A stretch of 64,000 nt of DNA. Origin: Oscillospiraceae bacterium. GTDB taxonomy: Bacteria > Bacillota > Clostridia > Oscillospirales > Acutalibacteraceae. A program made the translations under genes and the position numbers. The stretch spans positions 17,186-81,185 of the forward strand of contig SVPN01000004.1 of the NCBI GenBank assembly GCA_015065805.1. Direction: 5' to 3'. Under the pieces are notes generated by a model. It did not search any database. It worked only from the letters and a program-made list of their open reading frames with translations, and was not told where the DNA came from. Positions 2,097 to 9,046 of the stretch are shown here, piece after piece (position 1 is the stretch's first letter; each line of letters opens with the position of its first letter).

Positions 2097-2651
2097 TTAC
2101 AGTAAGCCTTGCTCTTTCATCCGCGCCACTTTCAGAACAGCGACCTGTGTTTTGGAATCGCGCAGTTCATCCGCCATCACCATCTCCACCGCTTTTGCAA
2201 GCGGGATGCGCAACACATCCAGGAATTCATCCTCGTCCGTGTGCTGAGCACCGAACGACAGTCCCGTTGCCAGATACAGATGAATGATCTCCCCGCAGTA
2301 GCCCGGGGTCGGGTACAGCTTGCCGAGCGACACGATCGTTTTTGCCGTCGCGCCCGTCTCCTCGGACAGCTCGCGGATACCTGCCTTGAGAGGATCCTCG
2401 CCTTTTTCCAGCTTACCGGCAGGCAGCTCCGTGATCACCTCTTCATACGGACAGCGAAACTGCCGCACGAACAACAGCTCCTCATCCTCGGTCAACGCCG
2501 CCACGCACACGCCGCCCGGATGTGCCACAATTTCACGCATCGCGGTTTCGCCGTTTGGCAACAGTGCCTTGTTATGATAGACCGTGATCACGCGTCCGTC
2601 AAAAATCAATTGCTCCTGCAGTGTTTTTTCAACCAATTTTTCATCGTGCAT
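2097..2651 (-). CDS. nudF: NUDIX hydrolase, ADP-ribose pyrophosphatase type
   Basis: Nudix box GKLEKGEDPLKAGIRELSEETG. The overall layout matches ADP-ribose pyrophosphatases (184 aa). Confidence 0.8.
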   Translation of the reverse strand: MHDEKLVEKTLQEQLIFDGRVITVYHNKALLPNGETAMREIVAHPGGVCVAALTEDEELLFVRQFRCPYEEVITELPAGKLEKGEDPLKAGIRELSEETGATAKTIVSLGKLYPTPGYCGEIIHLYLATGLSFGAQHTDEDEFLDVLRIPLAKAVEMVMADELRDSKTQVAVLKVARMKEQGLL

Positions 2652-2721: not shown

Positions 2722-3624
2722 ATGTCCTGTATCGTTACCGCGCAGACCGCCGACAGTCAGGCGGTTTTGGCGCTCTCATCCGCACTGTGTCATGCGTATC
2801 CGTTTTTGCAACGTACCGTCATCGGCACCAGCGTCTGCGGCCGTCCCATTGAAGCGCTGTCCGTCGGTCACGGTGAAAACGCCGTACTGTTCGCCGCCGC
2901 CTTTCACGCACAGGAGTGGATGACCTCTCTTGTGGCGCTCAGGCTGTGCGAGGAGCTGTGCCGCCTGTACAGCGGCGAGGTGATCCCCGAGCGCTTCAAT
3001 TATCCGCTCGTCGCCGCCTCCCGCACCATCGTCATTGTGCCGCAGGTCAACCCGGACGGGGTGGACATCGCCGTTCACGGTTCCAAAGCAGGCGGCTCAC
3101 ACGCCGCTATGCTTCATATACAGGGAGCGGATATCAAAGGCTACTGGCAGGCAAACGCCGCAGGTGTGGATATCAATCACAATTTCAACGCAGGCCGTGA
3201 GCGGTTGCAGGCGCTGGAGCGCAGTCACGGCATTCACGCGCCCTGCGGCAGACAATTCGGCGGTACCTCCGCCGAAAGCGAACCCGAAACGCGCGCCCTC
3301 ACCGCCCTTTGCCGCCGTCTGCCGTTCACACACGTCGCCGCCCTGCATTCACAGGGAGAAGAGATCTATTGGCAATACGGTGAGCGCACCCCGCCGATCG
3401 CTCGTATGACAGCGCGGGTAATGGGCTCCTTAAGCGGCTATACCCCCGCCGCTCCCGACGGAATGGCATCCCACGGCGGCTTCAAGGATTGGTTTATAGA
3501 AGAAACGGGACGGATGGGCTTCACCTTTGAACTCGGCAAAGGACACAACCCGTTGCCCCTGAGCGACTTCGAACCGCTGTGGGAAAAGGTAAAGGAAATG
3601 CTGCTGTTCACCGCGGTGCTCTGA
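2722..3624 (+). CDS. M14 family zinc carboxypeptidase (gamma-D-glutamyl-meso-diaminopimelate peptidase-like)
   Basis: Zinc-ligand motifs HAQEW and ALHSQGE, plus NPDG and SEPET motifs typical of bacterial M14 peptidoglycan peptidases. No signal peptide is evident. Confidence 0.7.
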   Translation: MSCIVTAQTADSQAVLALSSALCHAYPFLQRTVIGTSVCGRPIEALSVGHGENAVLFAAAFHAQEWMTSLVALRLCEELCRLYSGEVIPERFNYPLVAASRTIVIVPQVNPDGVDIAVHGSKAGGSHAAMLHIQGADIKGYWQANAAGVDINHNFNAGRERLQALERSHGIHAPCGRQFGGTSAESEPETRALTALCRRLPFTHVAALHSQGEEIYWQYGERTPPIARMTARVMGSLSGYTPAAPDGMASHGGFKDWFIEETGRMGFTFELGKGHNPLPLSDFEPLWEKVKEMLLFTAVL

Positions 3625-4315
3625 CGCGACGAACCCAGATCAGCACCACTGTCGCTGTCACCGTTGCCGCCGCGACCACCGCGATCACAAGCCAAAGTGC
3701 CGCCTGTGAAACGGGCGGTGCTTTTTCATAATCGTACGTTTCTGCCATCGGCGGTATGCCGTTCGTATAGTCATTGTGCAAATAGGCCGGCAGGAACAGC
3801 GCCTGACAATCTTCATACACCTTCACGGTATCCCGCTGTGCCTTTGTCACGATCACGGGATCGTAGCCGTACGATTCCAGACGCTGTACCTCGTTGTCCG
3901 ACAGCGTGTGTGCAGAAATCAGCATCGTCTCGGGATCGTATTTCAGCCTCTCCACCGTTTCACCCAGACGGTTGATCATAAACGATTCCCCCGTTTCGGT
4001 ATCGCGGCAGACATCCAGCCTGCCGATCGTCAGAAACCCGCGGTGTCCCAGCTCCGCATCCACAAACGCATAGGCGTGCGCCTGCTTGGGAGCATCCGGC
4101 TCTCCCGCTTCGACGCTGAGAAGCTCCTTGCGTCCGTCAAGATCGACATCGATAAACTGCACCCAATACACGGGGTAATCCTCCGTCCACACGGGCTCGC
4201 AGTAAATCGCCTGCATAAATTCTTCTGTTTCGGCTTCCGTATACGGCGTTGCCGATACAGGCAAGGTCAGCAACAGCGTCAACAGCATCACAGCCATCAG
4301 CAGTATCCGTTTCAA
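3608..4315 (-). CDS. Hypothetical exported, membrane-anchored protein
   Basis: N-terminal signal peptide (MKRILLMAVMLLTLLLTLPVSA) and a C-terminal TM helix followed by a basic tail (WLVIAVVAAATVTATVVLIWVRRVR). Its 3' end overlaps the convergent M14 gene by 17 nt. I recognise no family. Confidence 0.55.
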   Translation of the reverse strand: MKRILLMAVMLLTLLLTLPVSATPYTEAETEEFMQAIYCEPVWTEDYPVYWVQFIDVDLDGRKELLSVEAGEPDAPKQAHAYAFVDAELGHRGFLTIGRLDVCRDTETGESFMINRLGETVERLKYDPETMLISAHTLSDNEVQRLESYGYDPVIVTKAQRDTVKVYEDCQALFLPAYLHNDYTNGIPPMAETYDYEKAPPVSQAALWLVIAVVAAATVTATVVLIWVRRVRAPR

Positions 4316-4403: not shown

Positions 4404-4432
4404 TTGCCGCATCGGTAGTTATGTGCTATACT
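4404..4432 (+). promoter_or_regulatory. Candidate sigma-A promoter TTGCCG-17-TATACT upstream of the TIR/TPR gene
   Basis: The hexamers and 17-nt spacer were read directly. It lies about 70 nt upstream of the ATG at 4503. Confidence 0.45.
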
Positions 4433-4502
4433 GATCTTGCGAAAACGCTCGGATTGTGTTGGTTACATATATACCCAAAAAATTTAAGGAAGTGAAACCG
4501 TA

Positions 4503-7196
4503 ATGGCAACATTGCTTTACAAAACCCGCGGATCGGCTTCTCCGCAGGGCAAACCCAAGGTCTACCTCTGCTGTCACCCCGAGGACGCCGAACGCTTCAC
4601 CGAAGCCGTGTGCGACGAACTGCTCCAAAAGCAAAACTGCGCCGTGTGGTATTTGGAAGACCCGCACGCCGTGCGCGACGAAGAGCTGCTCGACGATCTC
4701 AAATCGATGCAGTTGTTCGTGATGCCCGTCACAAGGCGACTGCTTTCCACCGAAAACCCCGCCATCGACACGGAGTTTGCGTTTGCGACGGAGCATCACA
4801 TCCCCGTGTTACCGCTGATGCAGGAGGACGGACTGGACGTGCTGTTCAACGAACGTTGCGGCGATCTGCAATACCTCAGCCGCTTTGTCTCCGACCCCAC
4901 CGCTATCCCCTATGACGAAAAGCTTGCAAACTATCTGTCCTCAGTGCTCATCGGTGACGAGCTTGCCGAAAAGATCCGCGCCGCCTTTGACGCGTATGTA
5001 TTTTTAAGCTACCGCAAAAAAGACCGCCGCTATGCGCAGGAGCTGATGTGCCTGATCCATAAGCACGACTTTGCGCGCGATATCGCCATCTGGTACGATG
5101 AATTCCTCACCCCGGGTGAAAACTTCACCGATGCCATCCGCAAAGCCTTGCGGGACAGCGAGCTGTTTGTGTTAGCGGTCACCCCGCACCTCACCGAACC
5201 CGACAACTACGTGATGACCACGGAATACCCGCTTGCGCGCGAAGAGGGCAAGCCCGTCTTACCCGCGCAGATGTGCCCGACCGACCGTGACGCACTGGCA
5301 GGTGCCTTTGACGGCATTCCCGCGTGCACCGATGCGCACGACGATGCGGCAATGTCCGACGCGTTGCTTGACGCATTGCGGGCGGTCGCCTGCCGCGAAA
5401 ACGACACCCCCGAGCACAATTTCTTTATCGGTCTTGCCTATCTCGGCGGTGTCGATGTGGAGGTAGACCGCGACCGCGCCCTGACGCTGATCACCTCCGC
5501 GGCAGAGGAAGGCTTGACCGAAGCACTCGACAAGCTCGTGGAGATGTACCGAAACGGCATCGGTGTCGAACGCAACTTCCGCACCGCTATTCACTGGTTA
5601 GAACGAAAAGCGCAGTTTGCGCAAAAGCGGTACACCGACAACCCCACCGAAGAAAACGCCAACGATCTCTTTTGGTGCTTTATGGATTGCGGCGATGCGT
5701 TAAAAGGCATTGCCGATCTTGACGGTGCAAAAGCGTACTATCAAAAAGGGTTGGAGCTTCGCGTCACCCTTGCCGACGAAACGGGAACGGTCGAAGCCCG
5801 CCGCGATCTGTCGGTCAGCTACGAAAGGTTAGGCGATATTGCGAAAGCCCAAGGCGATCTTGACGGTGCAAAAGCGTACTATCAAAAGGGCTTGGAGCTC
5901 TCGCTCACCCTTGCCGACGAAACGGGAACGGTGCAGGCGCGCCGTGATCTCTCAATCAGCTATAATAAGTTAGGCGATATTGCCGAGACCCAAGGCGATC
6001 TTGATGCAGCAAAAACGTATTACCAAAAAGGCTTGGAGCTTCGCGTCACCCTTGCCGACGAAACGGGAACGGTCGAAGCCCGCCGCGATCTCTCGATCAG
6101 CTACGAAAGGTTAGGCGATATTGCGAAAGTCCAAGGCGATCTTGACGGTGCAAAGGCGTACTATCAAAAAGGCTTGGAGCTTCGCGTCACCCTTGCCGAC
6201 GAAACGGGAACGGTCGAAGCCCGCCGCGATCTTTCAGTCAGCTACGATAAGTCAGGCGATATTGCCGAGGCTCAAGGCGATCTTGACGGTGCAAAGACGT
6301 ATTACCAAAAAGGCTTGGAGCTTGCCGTCACCCTTGCCGACGAAACGGGAACGGTAGAGGCGCGCCGTGATCTCTCGGTCAGCTACGAAAGGTTAGGCGG
6401 CATTGCCGAAGCCCAAGGCGATCTTGACGGCGCAAAAGCGTATTATCAAAAAAGCCTGGAGCTTGCCGTCACCCTTGCCGACGAAACGGAAACGGTGCAG
6501 GCCCGCCGTGATCTCTCGATCAGCTATAATAAGTTAGGCGATATTGCGAAAGTCCAAGGCGATCTTGACGGTGCAAAGACGTATTACCAAAAAGACTTGG
6601 AGCTTGCCGTCACCCTTGCCGACGAAACGGGAACGGTCGAAGCCCGCCGCGACCTGTCGGTCAGCTACGAAAAATTAGGCGATATTGCGAAAGCCCAAGG
6701 CGATCTTGACGGTGCAAAGACGTATTACCAAAAAGACTTGGAGCTCTCGCTCACCCTTGCCGACGAAACGGGAACGGTGTTAGCACGCCGCGATCTGTCG
6801 GTCAGCTATAACAGACTCGGTGATATTGCCGAGGCCCAAGGCGATCTTGACGGTGCAAAGGCGTACTATCAAAAGGGCTTGGAGCTTCGCATCACCCTTG
6901 CCGACGAAACGGGAACCGCTGAAAGCATCGATGATCTTGCCATATCGCACTACAAACTCGCCTTTGTCAGCGATACCGCCGAAAAAGTCACCCATCTTCG
7001 CGAAGCGTTGCGACTCTTCACCCTGCTTTGCGAGCAATGCCCGCAGGTGCCGATTTACCGACAAAGACGCGATATCGTGCAGAGCGAGCTTGACAAGCTC
7101 ACTCCCGCCGACACAAGCGGCAACAATACCTCCCCCAAAAAGCGCAACCCTCTTGAAAATGAACTGCAAAACCTCTTCAACAGCAAAAAGCCGTAA
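4503..7196 (+). CDS. Double TIR-domain protein with Sel1-like repeats and nine 47-aa TPR-like repeats
   Basis: RBS AAGGAAGTGA upstream. Residues ~165-260 (YVFLSYRKKD...LFVLAVTPHL...TTEYPLA...PVLP) form a TIR_2-type domain. Residues ~18-105 are a recognisable paralog of it (VYLCCHPED...LFVMPVTRRL...DTEFAFA...PVLP). Residues ~305-370 are Sel1-like (LAYLGG..., MYRNGIGVERNFRTAIHWLERKA). Nine GDLDGAKxYYQKGLEL..TLADETGTVEARRDLSVSYxxLGDIA units follow. No signal peptide or TM segment. Confidence 0.8.
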   Translation: MATLLYKTRGSASPQGKPKVYLCCHPEDAERFTEAVCDELLQKQNCAVWYLEDPHAVRDEELLDDLKSMQLFVMPVTRRLLSTENPAIDTEFAFATEHHIPVLPLMQEDGLDVLFNERCGDLQYLSRFVSDPTAIPYDEKLANYLSSVLIGDELAEKIRAAFDAYVFLSYRKKDRRYAQELMCLIHKHDFARDIAIWYDEFLTPGENFTDAIRKALRDSELFVLAVTPHLTEPDNYVMTTEYPLAREEGKPVLPAQMCPTDRDALAGAFDGIPACTDAHDDAAMSDALLDALRAVACRENDTPEHNFFIGLAYLGGVDVEVDRDRALTLITSAAEEGLTEALDKLVEMYRNGIGVERNFRTAIHWLERKAQFAQKRYTDNPTEENANDLFWCFMDCGDALKGIADLDGAKAYYQKGLELRVTLADETGTVEARRDLSVSYERLGDIAKAQGDLDGAKAYYQKGLELSLTLADETGTVQARRDLSISYNKLGDIAETQGDLDAAKTYYQKGLELRVTLADETGTVEARRDLSISYERLGDIAKVQGDLDGAKAYYQKGLELRVTLADETGTVEARRDLSVSYDKSGDIAEAQGDLDGAKTYYQKGLELAVTLADETGTVEARRDLSVSYERLGGIAEAQGDLDGAKAYYQKSLELAVTLADETETVQARRDLSISYNKLGDIAKVQGDLDGAKTYYQKDLELAVTLADETGTVEARRDLSVSYEKLGDIAKAQGDLDGAKTYYQKDLELSLTLADETGTVLARRDLSVSYNRLGDIAEAQGDLDGAKAYYQKGLELRITLADETGTAESIDDLAISHYKLAFVSDTAEKVTHLREALRLFTLLCEQCPQVPIYRQRRDIVQSELDKLTPADTSGNNTSPKKRNPLENELQNLFNSKKP
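5712..6980 (+). repeat. Nine in-frame tandem 141-bp repeats (47-aa units) inside the TIR/TPR gene
   Basis: Unit boundaries were checked at 5712 and 5853, a 141-nt period. Most units differ by only a few substitutions by eye. The last unit degenerates in its second half. Confidence 0.9.
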
Positions 7197-7205
7197 ACAT
7201 TCCCC

Positions 7206-7242
7206 GCCGCGGATCGATTTTTTCGATCCGCGGCATTTTTTT
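7206..7242 (+). terminator. Intrinsic terminator of the TIR/TPR gene
   Basis: GCCGCGGATCGA-TTTTT-TCGATCCGCGGC hairpin followed by ATTTTTTT, 10 nt after the stop codon. Confidence 0.85.
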
Positions 7243-7390
7243 GCGGATGCCCCGCCGTTTTGCGGCAACGCGGTGCCTTGGTGCCGCCACTTTGCCGCAA
7301 TTTTCAAATTCTCTGCCGAGGAATCCCCCCGACGACTTCGCCGTCGCCTTCCTCGCCGGAGACGGCAACCCCTTTGTCCGCGTTGCGGAC

Positions 7391-7735
7391 ATTTCCCCTG
7401 ACAGGGGAATCGCCTTTAACAAGGTGGTCAAGGATCAAGAAACACCTAAACAGGCGGATCTTCTTGCCTCCCTTGTCAAAGGGAGGTGGATTTCGGCGTC
7501 AGCCGAAAGACGGAGGGATTCTTCAAAGGGAATCCCCCCGTCACCGCATAGCGGTGCCGACCCCCTTTGACAAGGGGGTCAAGGACTTGGGGTGCCTCCT
7601 GCATAGTAGAAAACGGCAGTCTTCTTGCCTCCCTTGTCAAAGGGAGGTGGATTTCGGTATCACAAGATACCGAAAGACGGAGGGATTCTTTCCTACTCTC
7701 CGTTAAGGAATCCCCCCAACGGCGGCAGCAAGCCG
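7391..7735. repeat. Two tandem copies of a ~165-nt hairpin-rich non-coding element
   Basis: The near-identical cores at 7459-7523 and 7620-7690 read TCTTCTTGCCTCCCTTGTCAAAGGGAGGTGGATTTCGG..CCGAAAGACGGAGGGATTCTT. Each unit also carries GGTCAAGGA, GGAATCCCCCC and GC-rich terminal hairpins. All ORFs here translate the repeats and look non-coding. Confidence 0.7.
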
Positions 7736-7880: not shown

Positions 7881-8246
7881 TTATGCGGCAATGTCAATGT
7901 GTGCCGCGGCGCGCTGACGGCGAACCAGACGCAGGGGCTCCATCGTGTTGAACATATCCGCGCGGAAGCGGTTGCGCAAACGCACACGCGCCTTGAACTC
8001 CTCACGGTCATTCTTCATCGCTACGGCGCACGCGATCAGCACCGCCGCGCGAGCCGCCACCAAAAGCAGCATCACCGCGGGGTTGGTCACGCCCGACAGC
8101 AGTCCGAACAGCGCCACCTCACCGACCGCCATCAACAGGGCGATCCCCGCCACGCGACGCGTTGCCGCAAAATGTGCTTTGATCATCATATACCCGGTCA
8201 TCATCACAAACGCCGTGATGCTTACAATACTGATTACCATACTCAT
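7881..8246 (-). CDS. Small hypothetical membrane protein
   Basis: ORF 7881..8288 trimmed to the ATG that follows GGAGGT (MSMVISIVSITAFVMM...). It has three predicted hydrophobic helices and a basic C-terminal tail. I recognise no family. Confidence 0.5.
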   Translation of the reverse strand: MSMVISIVSITAFVMMTGYMMIKAHFAATRRVAGIALLMAVGEVALFGLLSGVTNPAVMLLLVAARAAVLIACAVAMKNDREEFKARVRLRNRFRADMFNTMEPLRLVRRQRAAAHIDIAA

Positions 8247-8587
8247 ACTTGTGTACCTCCTCGAACAACCGTTAGAACAAACGTTCAACTATATTATACC
8301 GAACATTTTCAAAAAATCAAGTCTTTTGGCACAAAAAGAAATGCCAATTTTGTAACGAAAGGTGTCGCATATCTGCACACCTTGTGGTGTTTTCCACGTT
8401 TTTGACGCAAAATGTGGGCAATTTCGGCGTTTTCACCGCCTTTTTCCACATCCCGCTCATTTGTTCGGCGTTCACCCATTGTTCGCTCGTTTGTTCGGCA
8501 ATTTTGTTCACTTTTCCACCGCACAAGCAACGAAAACAGCAGGCAAACGCGCCGCTTGTTCGGCACGCTTGCCTGCTTATCTTTGTT

Positions 8588-9046
8588 TTATTCGCCTTGT
8601 TCATCCCGATTGCCCGAGCCGGACGGTCTCACAACCCGTCTTGCGCGCGGCTTCTCCGTCAACCGCGGCGCATTGTGCAACAGCACCAACAAGCAATCGT
8701 GATACGGTTCCTCAAGCACCTCTTCCCTGCACGCAAGTGCCAGCGCTTCCATCTCCTCCGCCGTAAAGCTGTTGCACAGCCATTGCCGAAACCGCTTGCG
8801 CGCCCGACTGTCGTGTGTGGAGCACTCCCAGCCGCGGGAACGGTAATCCCCCCAACGCTCGCGGCTAATCACCATCACCGCATACGAAAGACTTGTGGCA
8901 GTGTCCTGATGCTCACGCCACGTGATCTCGGAGAGAACGGCATTCTTGAGCCTGGGCAGCTCGTTGCCGTATTGCTCCATCCGATCCGACTTTTCGGCAA
9001 TCAACTGAACAAAACGGGCCATCCGTCCGGCAAACGATGCCGTCAT
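8588..9046 (-). CDS. Hypothetical protein
   Basis: 152-aa ORF with a plausible RBS region and native-like composition. No motif recognised. Confidence 0.4.
   Translation of the reverse strand: MTASFAGRMARFVQLIAEKSDRMEQYGNELPRLKNAVLSEITWREHQDTATSLSYAVMVISRERWGDYRSRGWECSTHDSRARKRFRQWLCNSFTAEEMEALALACREEVLEEPYHDCLLVLLHNAPRLTEKPRARRVVRPSGSGNRDEQGE

Follow-up and report, generated by a model that had tools for sequence, protein, structure and literature searches.

A degenerate and a canonical TIR domain joined to Sel1 and TPR repeats in a Clostridia protein: a candidate sensor-effector without an NTPase

Can a single bacterial protein carry a TIR enzyme together with its own control, with no nucleoside triphosphatase (NTPase) to switch it? 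TIR domains that cleave NAD+ (TIR NADases) act in immunity and cell death across bacteria, plants and animals; to become active they normally have to self-associate, driven by a separate switch. The question is raised by a gene in a 64,000-nucleotide (nt) stretch of an Oscillospiraceae bacterium genome (contig SVPN01000004.1, positions 17,186 to 81,185; hereafter the window). Its open reading frame (ORF), at 4503-7196 on the forward strand, begins with ATG and encodes a protein of 897 amino acids (aa); the JGI call on metagenome contig Ga0318466_10006771 (83.7 kb), which includes the window, gives the identical gene. A preliminary description of the window, made from its letters, had seen in this protein two tandem TIR domains, each with a glutamate at the catalytic position, followed by repeats, and had proposed a self-contained NAD+-depleting or signalling sensor. 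Our own reading is tentative, and we would put it at somewhat under an even chance: the second TIR domain (TIR2) would be an NAD+-cleaving effector, the first (TIR1) and the Sel1 helices would restrain or position it, the TPR array would control it, and the enzymatic activity would itself be the output. The parts of the gene on which this reading draws are as follows.

4503..7196, forward strand: ORF of 897 aa, comprising TIR1, TIR2, Sel1-like helices, nine 47-aa TPR units and a C-terminal cap
4503..4877, forward strand: N-terminal strand and motif plus TIR1 (aa 19-125), a divergent TIR fold, probably non-catalytic
4773..4775, forward strand: codon of E91, the TIR1 equivalent of E241
4878..4991, forward strand: inter-TIR linker (aa 126-163), two helices, strongly conserved (90% or more in 15 of 38 columns)
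4992..5282, forward strand: TIR2 (aa 164-260), canonical TIR_2, with motifs FLSYRKKD, IWYDE, PGE, VTP, NY and EY
5223..5225, forward strand: codon of E241, candidate catalytic Glu, in helix alphaC
5343..5711, forward strand: Sel1-like alpha-solenoid (aa 281-403), between the TIR module and the TPR array
5712..6980, forward strand: nine tandem 47-aa units of TPR_12 type (aa 404-826)
6981..7193, forward strand: C-terminal capping helices (consensus L..CP..P.Y..RRD.V), then a low-complexity tail; family-conserved

The tandem TIR module

The Pfam family TIR_2 (PF13676) matches the whole protein with 52.2 bits and aa 161-300 alone with 40.3 bits (E=5e-10; cut-off 28), and a profile search of the PDB with TIR2 matches AbTIR. 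A phmmer search with a 61-aa fragment of TIR2 returned a spurious eIF2 match only. In the case of TIR1, aa 1-160 scanned alone gave no Pfam match and no PDB match was found by sequence, but its kinship to TIR2 can be read within the protein and the family: BLASTP aligns aa 1-160 with aa 161-300 at 31% identity over 91 aa (E=6e-8), hhalign joins the two family profiles with 97% probability (E=1e-10) and pairs E91 with E241, and a hidden Markov model (HMM) built from either half picks up both halves in all family genes.

Predicted structure agrees. The AlphaFold2 model of aa 1-400, made with 120 homologs, has a pLDDT of 93.6 and a pTM of 0.89 and shows two domains of alternating strands and helices followed by paired helices, which we read with confidence as a single packed unit within the model. 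Modelled alone, TIR1 keeps the strand-helix alternation (pLDDT 89.9), and Foldseek matches this model in the PDB mainly to TIRs, namely those of SARM1, RPS4/RRS1, PdTIR, AbTir, RPV1, RUN1 and BtpA, at target-normalised TM-scores of 0.5-0.63 that indicate likeness at the level of the fold only; taken together, the matches of the two models also include the SPARTA TIR. By its profile match to TIR2 and its predicted structure, TIR1 is thus assigned a TIR fold. The two tandem paralogous TIRs of the preliminary description are borne out in this form, with TIR1 highly divergent; of the HMM and structure searches it had called for, those on structure predict a TIR fold for the N-terminal region, and TIR_2 is passed only by TIR2. 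The TIR start VFLSYRKKD that it had picked out belongs to a bona fide TIR_2 domain.

The two domains differ in conservation. Across 121 sequences, TIR2 is the best-conserved region of the protein (mean identity 70%): conservation reaches 90% or more in 55 of its 97 columns, versus 27 of 107 in TIR1. Invariant in TIR2 (121/121) are F167, S169, Y170, R171, K172, D174, R175, W197, D199, P204, G205, E206, T227, P228, N235, E241 and Y242, and Y198, E200 and Y236 are kept in 120 of the 121. Reading these residues as an NADase active site presumes what is known of SARM1. Aligned by hhalign with the human SARM1 TIR (a sequence identical to the PDB chains), the TIR2 profile scores E=4.6e-5 with a probability of 68%, and Y170/R171/K172 pair with SARM1 Y568/R569/R570 and E241 with the catalytic E642; A245 likewise pairs with A646, G249-K250 with G650-K651, and P254 with P655. 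The TIR2 residues of these pairs do not vary among the 121 homologs, nor do some 20 further positions of the domain.

One alignment speaks against this register. HMMER, run against AbTir and a related TIR, sets N235-Y236 on the 'NY' before the AbTir Glu, and the AbTir Glu, which we presume to be the catalytic one in the NYE motif, then falls on V237, four residues or one helical turn before E241. Since every homolog has E241 and position 237 is kept only as hydrophobic, we take E241 as the candidate catalytic equivalent in TIR2, although the register is not fully settled.

At the E91 position of TIR1, Glu is found in 87 of the 121 homologs (72%), Asp in 23, and Val, Ala or Leu in 11. TIR1 also showed no SYR[RK] motif, no PGE motif and, by hhalign, no profile similarity to SARM1. 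With Glu missing at this position in more than a quarter of the homologs, TIR1 is probably a degenerate, non-catalytic partner, and the protein would have one catalytic TIR and not two equivalent sites. A Glu had been described at the catalytic position of each TIR; in the family that Glu is conserved for E241 (121/121, set on SARM1 E642) but not for E91 (87/121), and the built-in pair of equivalent catalytic TIRs is not what these comparisons suggest.

Ahead of TIR1, and taking in its first strand, lies an N-terminal motif (aa 1-26; 4503-4580) with the consensus YKTRGxxSPQGKPRVYFCCH, read in the window protein as ...GKPKVYLCCH; T8, P14, G16 and H25 each reach 90% conservation or more, and the AlphaFold2 model places an additional beta-strand at aa 4-7. 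A P-loop in GxxSPQGKP was considered and ruled out, as the spacing is not GxxxxGK and strand-loop-strand would be the wrong topology for a P-loop.

Repeats, family and divergence

Behind the TIR module the protein is built of helical repeats. The Pfam Sel1 family matches aa 281-440 scanned alone with 40.8 bits (cut-off 30.7) and is weak in the whole-protein scan; the region matches the Sel1 protein 6ok3 in the PDB (E=2.4e-22), and Sel1 proteins rank top among the Foldseek matches of the aa 1-400 model. In the array that follows, Tandem Repeats Finder reports a period of 141 nt with 8.5 copies and 86% matches (5714-6916), Pfam finds TPR_12, TPR_2 and related models, and the first eight units have a mean pairwise identity of 85%. 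The C-terminal cap recurs in the family members P0001, P0004, P0015, P0021 and others, and in the locus L002, which is taken up below. These results agree with the Sel1-like repeats and nine TPR-like units described earlier, the nine 47-aa units beginning at aa 404. The absence of an NTPase switch was likewise upheld: the 897-aa protein has no Walker A motif, and the Pfam, PADLOC and NCBIfam results hold no STAND, AAA or other NTPase family for it. An Avs/STAND-like protein was rejected because the NTPase is missing; Sel1 helices occupy the stretch between TIR2 and the TPR array. Neither a transmembrane segment nor a hydrophobic stretch like a signal peptide was found (maximum Kyte-Doolittle mean over 19 residues, 0.65), and the protein is cytosolic as judged by hydropathy.

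The architecture belongs to a large family. A sequence search with aa 1-400 found relatives that share 53-77% identity with this segment, in at least 815 clusters (90% identity level); those that bear a name are annotated as "TIR domain-containing protein" or as "tetratricopeptide repeat protein" and come from metagenome-assembled genomes (MAGs) of Clostridia. When the TIR1 profile was used for an exhaustive HMM search, it gave 2,384 clusters at 50% identity, 1,450 of them at E<=1e-30. All of the 150 top matches of that profile hold at least two TIR stretches, and TIR1 begins within the first 10 residues in 148 of the 150 top family proteins; lengths run from about 520 to 1,400 aa. Two members depart from this plan. 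P0181 (1,110 aa) has an internal TIR1, from residue 186, and P0121 (1,903 aa) has four TIR stretches with a second TIR1 from residue 937 and is probably two family genes fused or read through. A literature search on tandem TIRs and on TIR together with Clostridia family names found nothing on this double-TIR family.

A scan of one genome per GTDB species found at least 533 family loci. Of these, 79 were listed, and by their labels nearly all of the 79 are MAGs of Clostridia from gut or rumen, among them Acutalibacteraceae, Oscillospiraceae, Lachnospiraceae, Ruminococcus and Lawsonibacter; one has the label Muribaculaceae. Several MAGs carry the family gene on two or three contigs, and two or three paralogs stand in tandem on the same strand in L015, L025, L031 (5305-12050), L045 and L052 (25-7259).

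The best of the loci listed, in the Acutalibacteraceae MAG L002 (77% identity), allows the gene to be compared with its flanks. Identity to L002 is 97% for SASP, 93% for UvrC and 85% for a small hypothetical protein, against 85.5% for TIR2, 76% for TIR1, 69% for the Sel1 region and 76% for aa 1-403 overall. The L002 gene (1708-3930) has six heterogeneous repeat units versus the nine of the window, at their 85% mean pairwise identity, and synteny between the two ends exactly at the upstream edge of the TIR gene. Judged from these identities, divergence is much faster in the TIR gene, and above all in its repeats, than in the genes on either side.

The 47-aa period is kept in 70 of 83 family members, and homogenised arrays, defined by at least 70% self-identity over three units, occur in 10 of the 83, in different lineages, a distribution that points to independent homogenisation in these ten. 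In the window array, variation falls at about ten of the 47 positions (8, 13, 17, 18, 28, 35, 38, 39, 45 and 46). Multiple copies, tandem paralogs, variable length (given here as some 600 to 1,350 aa) and homogenised arrays are together features typical, by analogy, of immune-receptor families.

Proposed mechanism, precedents and rival explanations

The protein would, on the reading we favour, be a self-contained TIR sensor-effector that dispenses with an NTPase. TIR2 would be the catalytic NAD+-cleaving domain, with Y170, R171, K172 and E241 as candidate active-site residues, and TIR1, a duplicated and degenerate TIR freed from the need for a Glu, would be its built-in partner or cap, packed with the Sel1 helices. 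The 47-aa TPR solenoid would serve as a platform for ligand binding or oligomerisation, and its engagement would gather or release the TIR2s of several molecules, leading to NAD+ hydrolysis. For lack of a conserved partner gene, the effector would be the TIR itself, and it would therefore bring about NAD+ depletion or growth arrest, most plausibly in defence against phage or in another conflict, as in the case of E. coli TIR-II. The domain anatomy, the pattern of conservation, the size of the family, the lack of a partner gene and the rapid evolution of the repeats are observed; the enzymatic activity, a regulatory role for TIR1, sensing by the TPR array and the biological role are inferred. 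A bolder version, in which the family constitutes Clostridia-wide, NTPase-free receptors where a degenerate TIR caps a catalytic one until a trigger on the concertedly evolving TPR array frees an NAD+-depleting assembly, seems to us doubtful.

The family would be of interest on any of several outcomes. It comprises at least 1,450 clusters at 50% identity, seemingly confined to gut and rumen Clostridia, and combines a degenerate and an intact TIR with repeats and no NTPase. If TIR1 regulates TIR2, the protein would be a compact and tractable model for TIR autoinhibition and activation. An antiphage role would make the family a major unlisted defence component of dominant gut commensals, with a bearing on phage-microbiome ecology and phage therapy, and a role outside immunity would reveal a conserved NAD+-linked TIR function in Clostridia physiology, of interest in itself. 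Should the capped-receptor version hold, these proteins would rank, in the gut microbiome, with the most abundant families of immune sensors yet to be characterised, and would show a new mode of TIR regulation.

The closest validated precedent, set beside the window protein by described architecture, is TIR-II of E. coli, a single-protein TIR and TPR antiphage system that requires a TIR active-site residue; it is reported as the most widespread of the TIR systems surveyed and as present in Caudoviricetes (PMC11350192). By its published description, TIR-II is likewise one chain with an N-terminal TIR and C-terminal TPRs, encoded by a stand-alone gene and mostly without an NTPase. The window protein differs in its two TIRs, one degenerate, its Sel1 bridge and its 47-aa type of repeat; its gene comes from Clostridia and TIR-II from Proteobacteria, and whereas copies in Caudoviricetes are reported for TIR-II, this family was not found in the phage collection. 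The preliminary description had recognised no named system here. That remark calls for a qualification, as a single-protein TIR and TPR system had already been validated in TIR-II. What is new is the obligatory tandem of a degenerate TIR and a TIR, the size of the family and its taxonomic restriction; single-protein TIR and repeat systems are known.

Human SARM1 consists of an ARM solenoid, SAM domains and a TIR NADase, and offers by analogy the best functional comparison, a TIR NADase regulated by a solenoid without an NTPase. In both proteins the TIR would be governed by an alpha-solenoid of the same chain, TIR2 has the SYR[RK] motif and the E...A...GK..xP spacing, and SARM1 is among the top fold matches of the TIR1 and aa 1-400 models. 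The window protein nevertheless has the reverse domain order, no SAM oligomerisation domains and an additional degenerate TIR, and the similarity is at profile level only. In plants, RPS4 and RRS1 pair an active TIR with a non-signalling TIR that restrains it. Their TIRs are top fold matches of TIR1, in an analogy that is structural and conceptual only: RPS4 and RRS1 are two separate nucleotide-binding leucine-rich repeat (LRR) receptors with NB-ARC NTPases and LRRs, and the window protein is a single chain.

In Bacillus cereus, BcTir is an inactive TIR that works with BcTpr, an NADase-TPR protein (preprint, bioRxiv 10.1101/2023.05.26.542521), and TIR with ThsI, a nucleosidase-TPR protein, makes up Thoeris types VII/VIII, in which the TPR is proposed to join TIR signalling (10.64898/2025.12.03.692087). 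BcTir/BcTpr combines a catalytically dead TIR-fold unit with an active N-glycosidase/NADase unit that bears TPRs, as the window protein may do, but it is a two-gene operon with a MilB-like catalytic domain; in the window protein a single gene joins the two units, and the candidate catalytic domain is of TIR_2 type. Foldseek lists the B. cereus TIR structure 8fz9 and MilB among the matches of aa 1-400; the match to MilB 4ohr is weak (E=1.2e-2; target-normalised TM-score 0.56) and no better than those to TIRs, and no sequence match of the window protein to MilB or 8fz9 was found in the PDB. An intramolecular TIR1 cap would be the built-in equivalent of the RRS1/RPS4 or BcTir/BcTpr pairing.

A stand-alone protein with an N-terminal TIR_2 and a long helical region is also seen in the PDB entries 9m0n/9umd ('Tetratricopeptide repeat protein', 824 aa) and in a homolog, WP_080176002.1, on a Photobacterium plasmid. 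This type has a single TIR, its likeness to the window protein covers 71 aa of TIR (BLASTP E=9e-4), no Pfam TPR or Sel1 repeats were found in it, and a literature search for 9M0N/9UMD found no paper. The gene at L087:4917-7382, on the Photobacterium toruni plasmid NZ_AP024856.1, encodes 821 aa with a single TIR and a helical C-terminus; its protein is 67% identical to 9m0n/9umd over a 39-aa fragment, and the gene stands downstream of a 923-aa CoiA-nuclease-like gene and near a VasX toxin gene.

Genomic context was surveyed in 80 loci. Their genes were called from codon usage, with the TIR gene as the seed, an approach that recovered the JGI calls of the source contig L001, and the 971 proteins were clustered. 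The largest cluster outside the family holds ABC ATPases (10 genes in 9 of the 80 loci), and the other recurrent neighbours are ABC transporters, RpoD, DegV, two-component systems, transketolase and a surface repeat protein. All of them belong to widespread families of paralogs and are not partners. No conserved partner or ThsA-like effector gene was found in the 80 loci, in agreement with the earlier statement that none lies nearby, and a conserved two-gene system was rejected for want of any recurrent neighbour. Canonical Thoeris was set aside because there is no effector gene and the ThsB models are sub-threshold (PADLOC ThsB, E=6.6e-3; NCBIfam ThcB4, 14.3 bits against a cut-off of 220).

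Several observations weigh against a defence function and with it against the reading we favour. The 131 directly adjacent genes hold 202 Pfam families, none in more than four genes, and are diverse and mostly housekeeping. Adjacent genes match 44 PADLOC families versus 86 for a size-matched control set at least six positions from a family gene, and since they match fewer than this distal control there is no local defence enrichment (PADLOC v2, of 2023, is older than TIR-II). On the window protein itself, PADLOC and NCBIfam defence models give sub-threshold TIR matches only. A tblastn search with aa 1-300 found no match in the phage and plasmid collections, and IMG/VR holds only two family loci, each in the last third of its contig with the fetched window reaching the contig end, possibly the host flank of a prophage call. 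Loci from MAGs of the same genus label share neighbour clusters, though mostly of common gene families, and the locus seems syntenic within genera. Identity over aa 1-400 remains at 53-77% across MAGs labelled Lachnospiraceae, Oscillospiraceae and Acutalibacteraceae, a conservation of the N-terminus unusually high for a defence gene. Variation between the repeat units is mostly synonymous (proportions of synonymous and nonsynonymous differences, pS 0.325 and pN 0.082; pN/pS 0.25), which rules out diversifying selection over the whole array and indicates concerted evolution under constraint, and not blanket positive selection. The defence association for which the preliminary description had proposed a survey was therefore not borne out by neighbours or by the phage and plasmid collections. 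A role in conflict or defence is plausible by analogy, from the precedents and from copy-number and repeat dynamics, and is not supported by genomic context.

Much of this would suit a non-enzymatic adaptor, in which the TIRs are interaction modules, as in animal TLR adaptors, and Sel1 and TPR repeats scaffold some Clostridia complex with a housekeeping or regulatory task, such as one in sporulation, in the cell envelope or in stress signalling. The housekeeping neighbours (SASP, UvrC, HPr, TrmD and RimM in the window; YqfD, YabP and RecA in L082), the apparently stable synteny within genera, the lack of a surplus of defence-model matches beside the gene, the absence from mobile elements (no match in the phage and plasmid collections, two loci in IMG/VR) and the strong conservation of the N-terminus between bacterial families all fit it. 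We consider it unlikely all the same, for the invariant residues are those that hhalign sets on the SARM1 SYRR motif and catalytic Glu, for which an adaptor has no obvious need; a core scaffold would not typically show tandem paralogs, a varying number of repeats or a divergence that outpaces its flanks, and no partner gene is conserved. TIR enzymes of the AbTir/7uxr class make cyclic ADP-ribose (cADPR) isomers, and the profile matches of TIR2 to that class would also allow a Thoeris-like signal generator, with TIR2 making a messenger of cADPR type or otherwise derived from ADP-ribose after TPR sensing and the effector encoded elsewhere. The weak matches to ThsB and ThcB4 models and the TPR proposed in TIR signalling for ThsI (10.64898/2025.12.03.692087) are in keeping with this. 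It is nonetheless quite improbable in view of the 80 loci, where no effector gene recurs near the TIR gene, and of the ThsB-type models, which score far under their cut-offs (14.3 vs 220 bits). Known Thoeris systems are, moreover, operonic.

The fold searches raise a further candidate, an N-glycosidase acting under TPR control on a substrate other than NAD+, that is, a TIR-fold domain like MilB or nucleoside 2-deoxyribosyltransferases working on nucleotides or nucleosides. The match of aa 1-400 to MilB 4ohr given above, together with BcTpr and ThsI, which join a MilB-like domain to TPRs, speaks for this, but TIRs do equally well or better in the same searches, the sequence signature is that of TIR_2, and the SYR[RK]...E motif fits SARM1, so that such an enzyme appears very improbable. 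Least probable, and hardly credible to us, is a host-directed effector of gut commensals resembling Tcp, a released TIR and Sel1 protein that disturbs host TLR/MyD88 signalling or NAD+. The loci listed do come nearly all from gut or rumen Clostridia MAGs, Sel1 matches include some from bacteria that live with hosts (LpnE and LceB of Legionella, HcpC of Helicobacter), and BtpA/TcpB is among the fold matches; yet hydropathy, used with no dedicated secretion predictor, shows no hydrophobic segment like a signal peptide or transmembrane helix, no secretion-system genes recur among the adjacent genes, and a multi-copy family with variable repeats better suits intracellular sensing.

The locus and its neighbours

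Around the ORF lie signals of a single-gene transcription unit, the promoter and terminator calls being consensus matches only.

4404..4432, forward strand: promoter-like site, TTGCCG, 17-nt spacer, TATACT, with TG ahead of the -10; from a consensus scan, 9 of 12 matches
4486..4492, forward strand: Shine-Dalgarno-like AAGGAAG, 10 nt 5' of the ATG; read from the sequence
7206..7242, forward strand: intrinsic-terminator-like hairpin, 12-bp stem with 9 GC pairs, 5-nt loop, then a T-run

The promoter scan of the region returned four such sites versus 2.5 expected by chance, so the site at 4404-4432 is weak evidence. The upstream gene (3608-4315) is on the opposite strand and divergent, with a gap of 187 nt to the ORF, and this layout, together with the terminator-like hairpin downstream, is consistent with a monocistronic TIR gene. 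The candidate promoter and terminator named before were both found again, the terminator scan placing its stem and T-run at 7206-7234, and the native-looking base composition was confirmed, the GC of the gene (0.53-0.60) equalling that of its flanks. Rfam and tRNA scans of the window gave no matches, nor did PHROGs on the TIR module.

The surroundings in the window are housekeeping genes, encoding a cation-efflux protein, NUDIX, M14 peptidase, SASP, UvrC, HPr, TrmD, RimM, GpsA, PlsY and Der. Between the M14 peptidase and SASP/UvrC, five small genes that flank the TIR gene form a patch of orphans, at 3608-4315 (reverse strand), 7247-7570 (forward), 7881-8246 (reverse), 8309-8479 (reverse) and 8588-9046 (reverse). 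None of the five has a Pfam or PHROG match, and L002 has a homolog of just one of them, the 119-aa protein (85% identity). When UvrC, from the neighbourhood, was used to scan metagenomes for close relatives without the TIR gene, nothing above 49% identity came back, which was uninformative on presence or absence. Two genes upstream of the TIR gene lies a NUDIX hydrolase gene (2097-2651, reverse strand). NUDIX enzymes can degrade ADP-ribose, but the proximity is probably a coincidence because NUDIX is not among the families that recur beside family members.

Elsewhere, the adjacent genes include a few that are defence-like: a Card1-type CARF nuclease, a Zeta toxin, other TIR genes, Mad proteins, DpdF and DolB. 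Card1-like CARF endonucleases are of the type activated by cyclic oligoadenylate, and such genes lie directly upstream of the family gene or close to it at L022:8565-9806, L023:8566-9807 and L073:6575-7840. Unrelated TIR genes stand within a few kb at L081:7131-8780, in L079 (12992-15565 and 16726-17745) and at L041:1042-2073, one example being TIR_2 with LRRs (549 aa); in these few loci this may point to small clusters of TIR genes. Finally, a gene for DUF6788 with Fic (AMPylase type) lies directly upstream of P0070 on the same strand (L082:8965-9903) and occurs also in L083 and L084; the P0070 locus, whose neighbours include YqfD, YabP and RecA, is near HPr-TrmD-RimM as in the window, with other genes in between.

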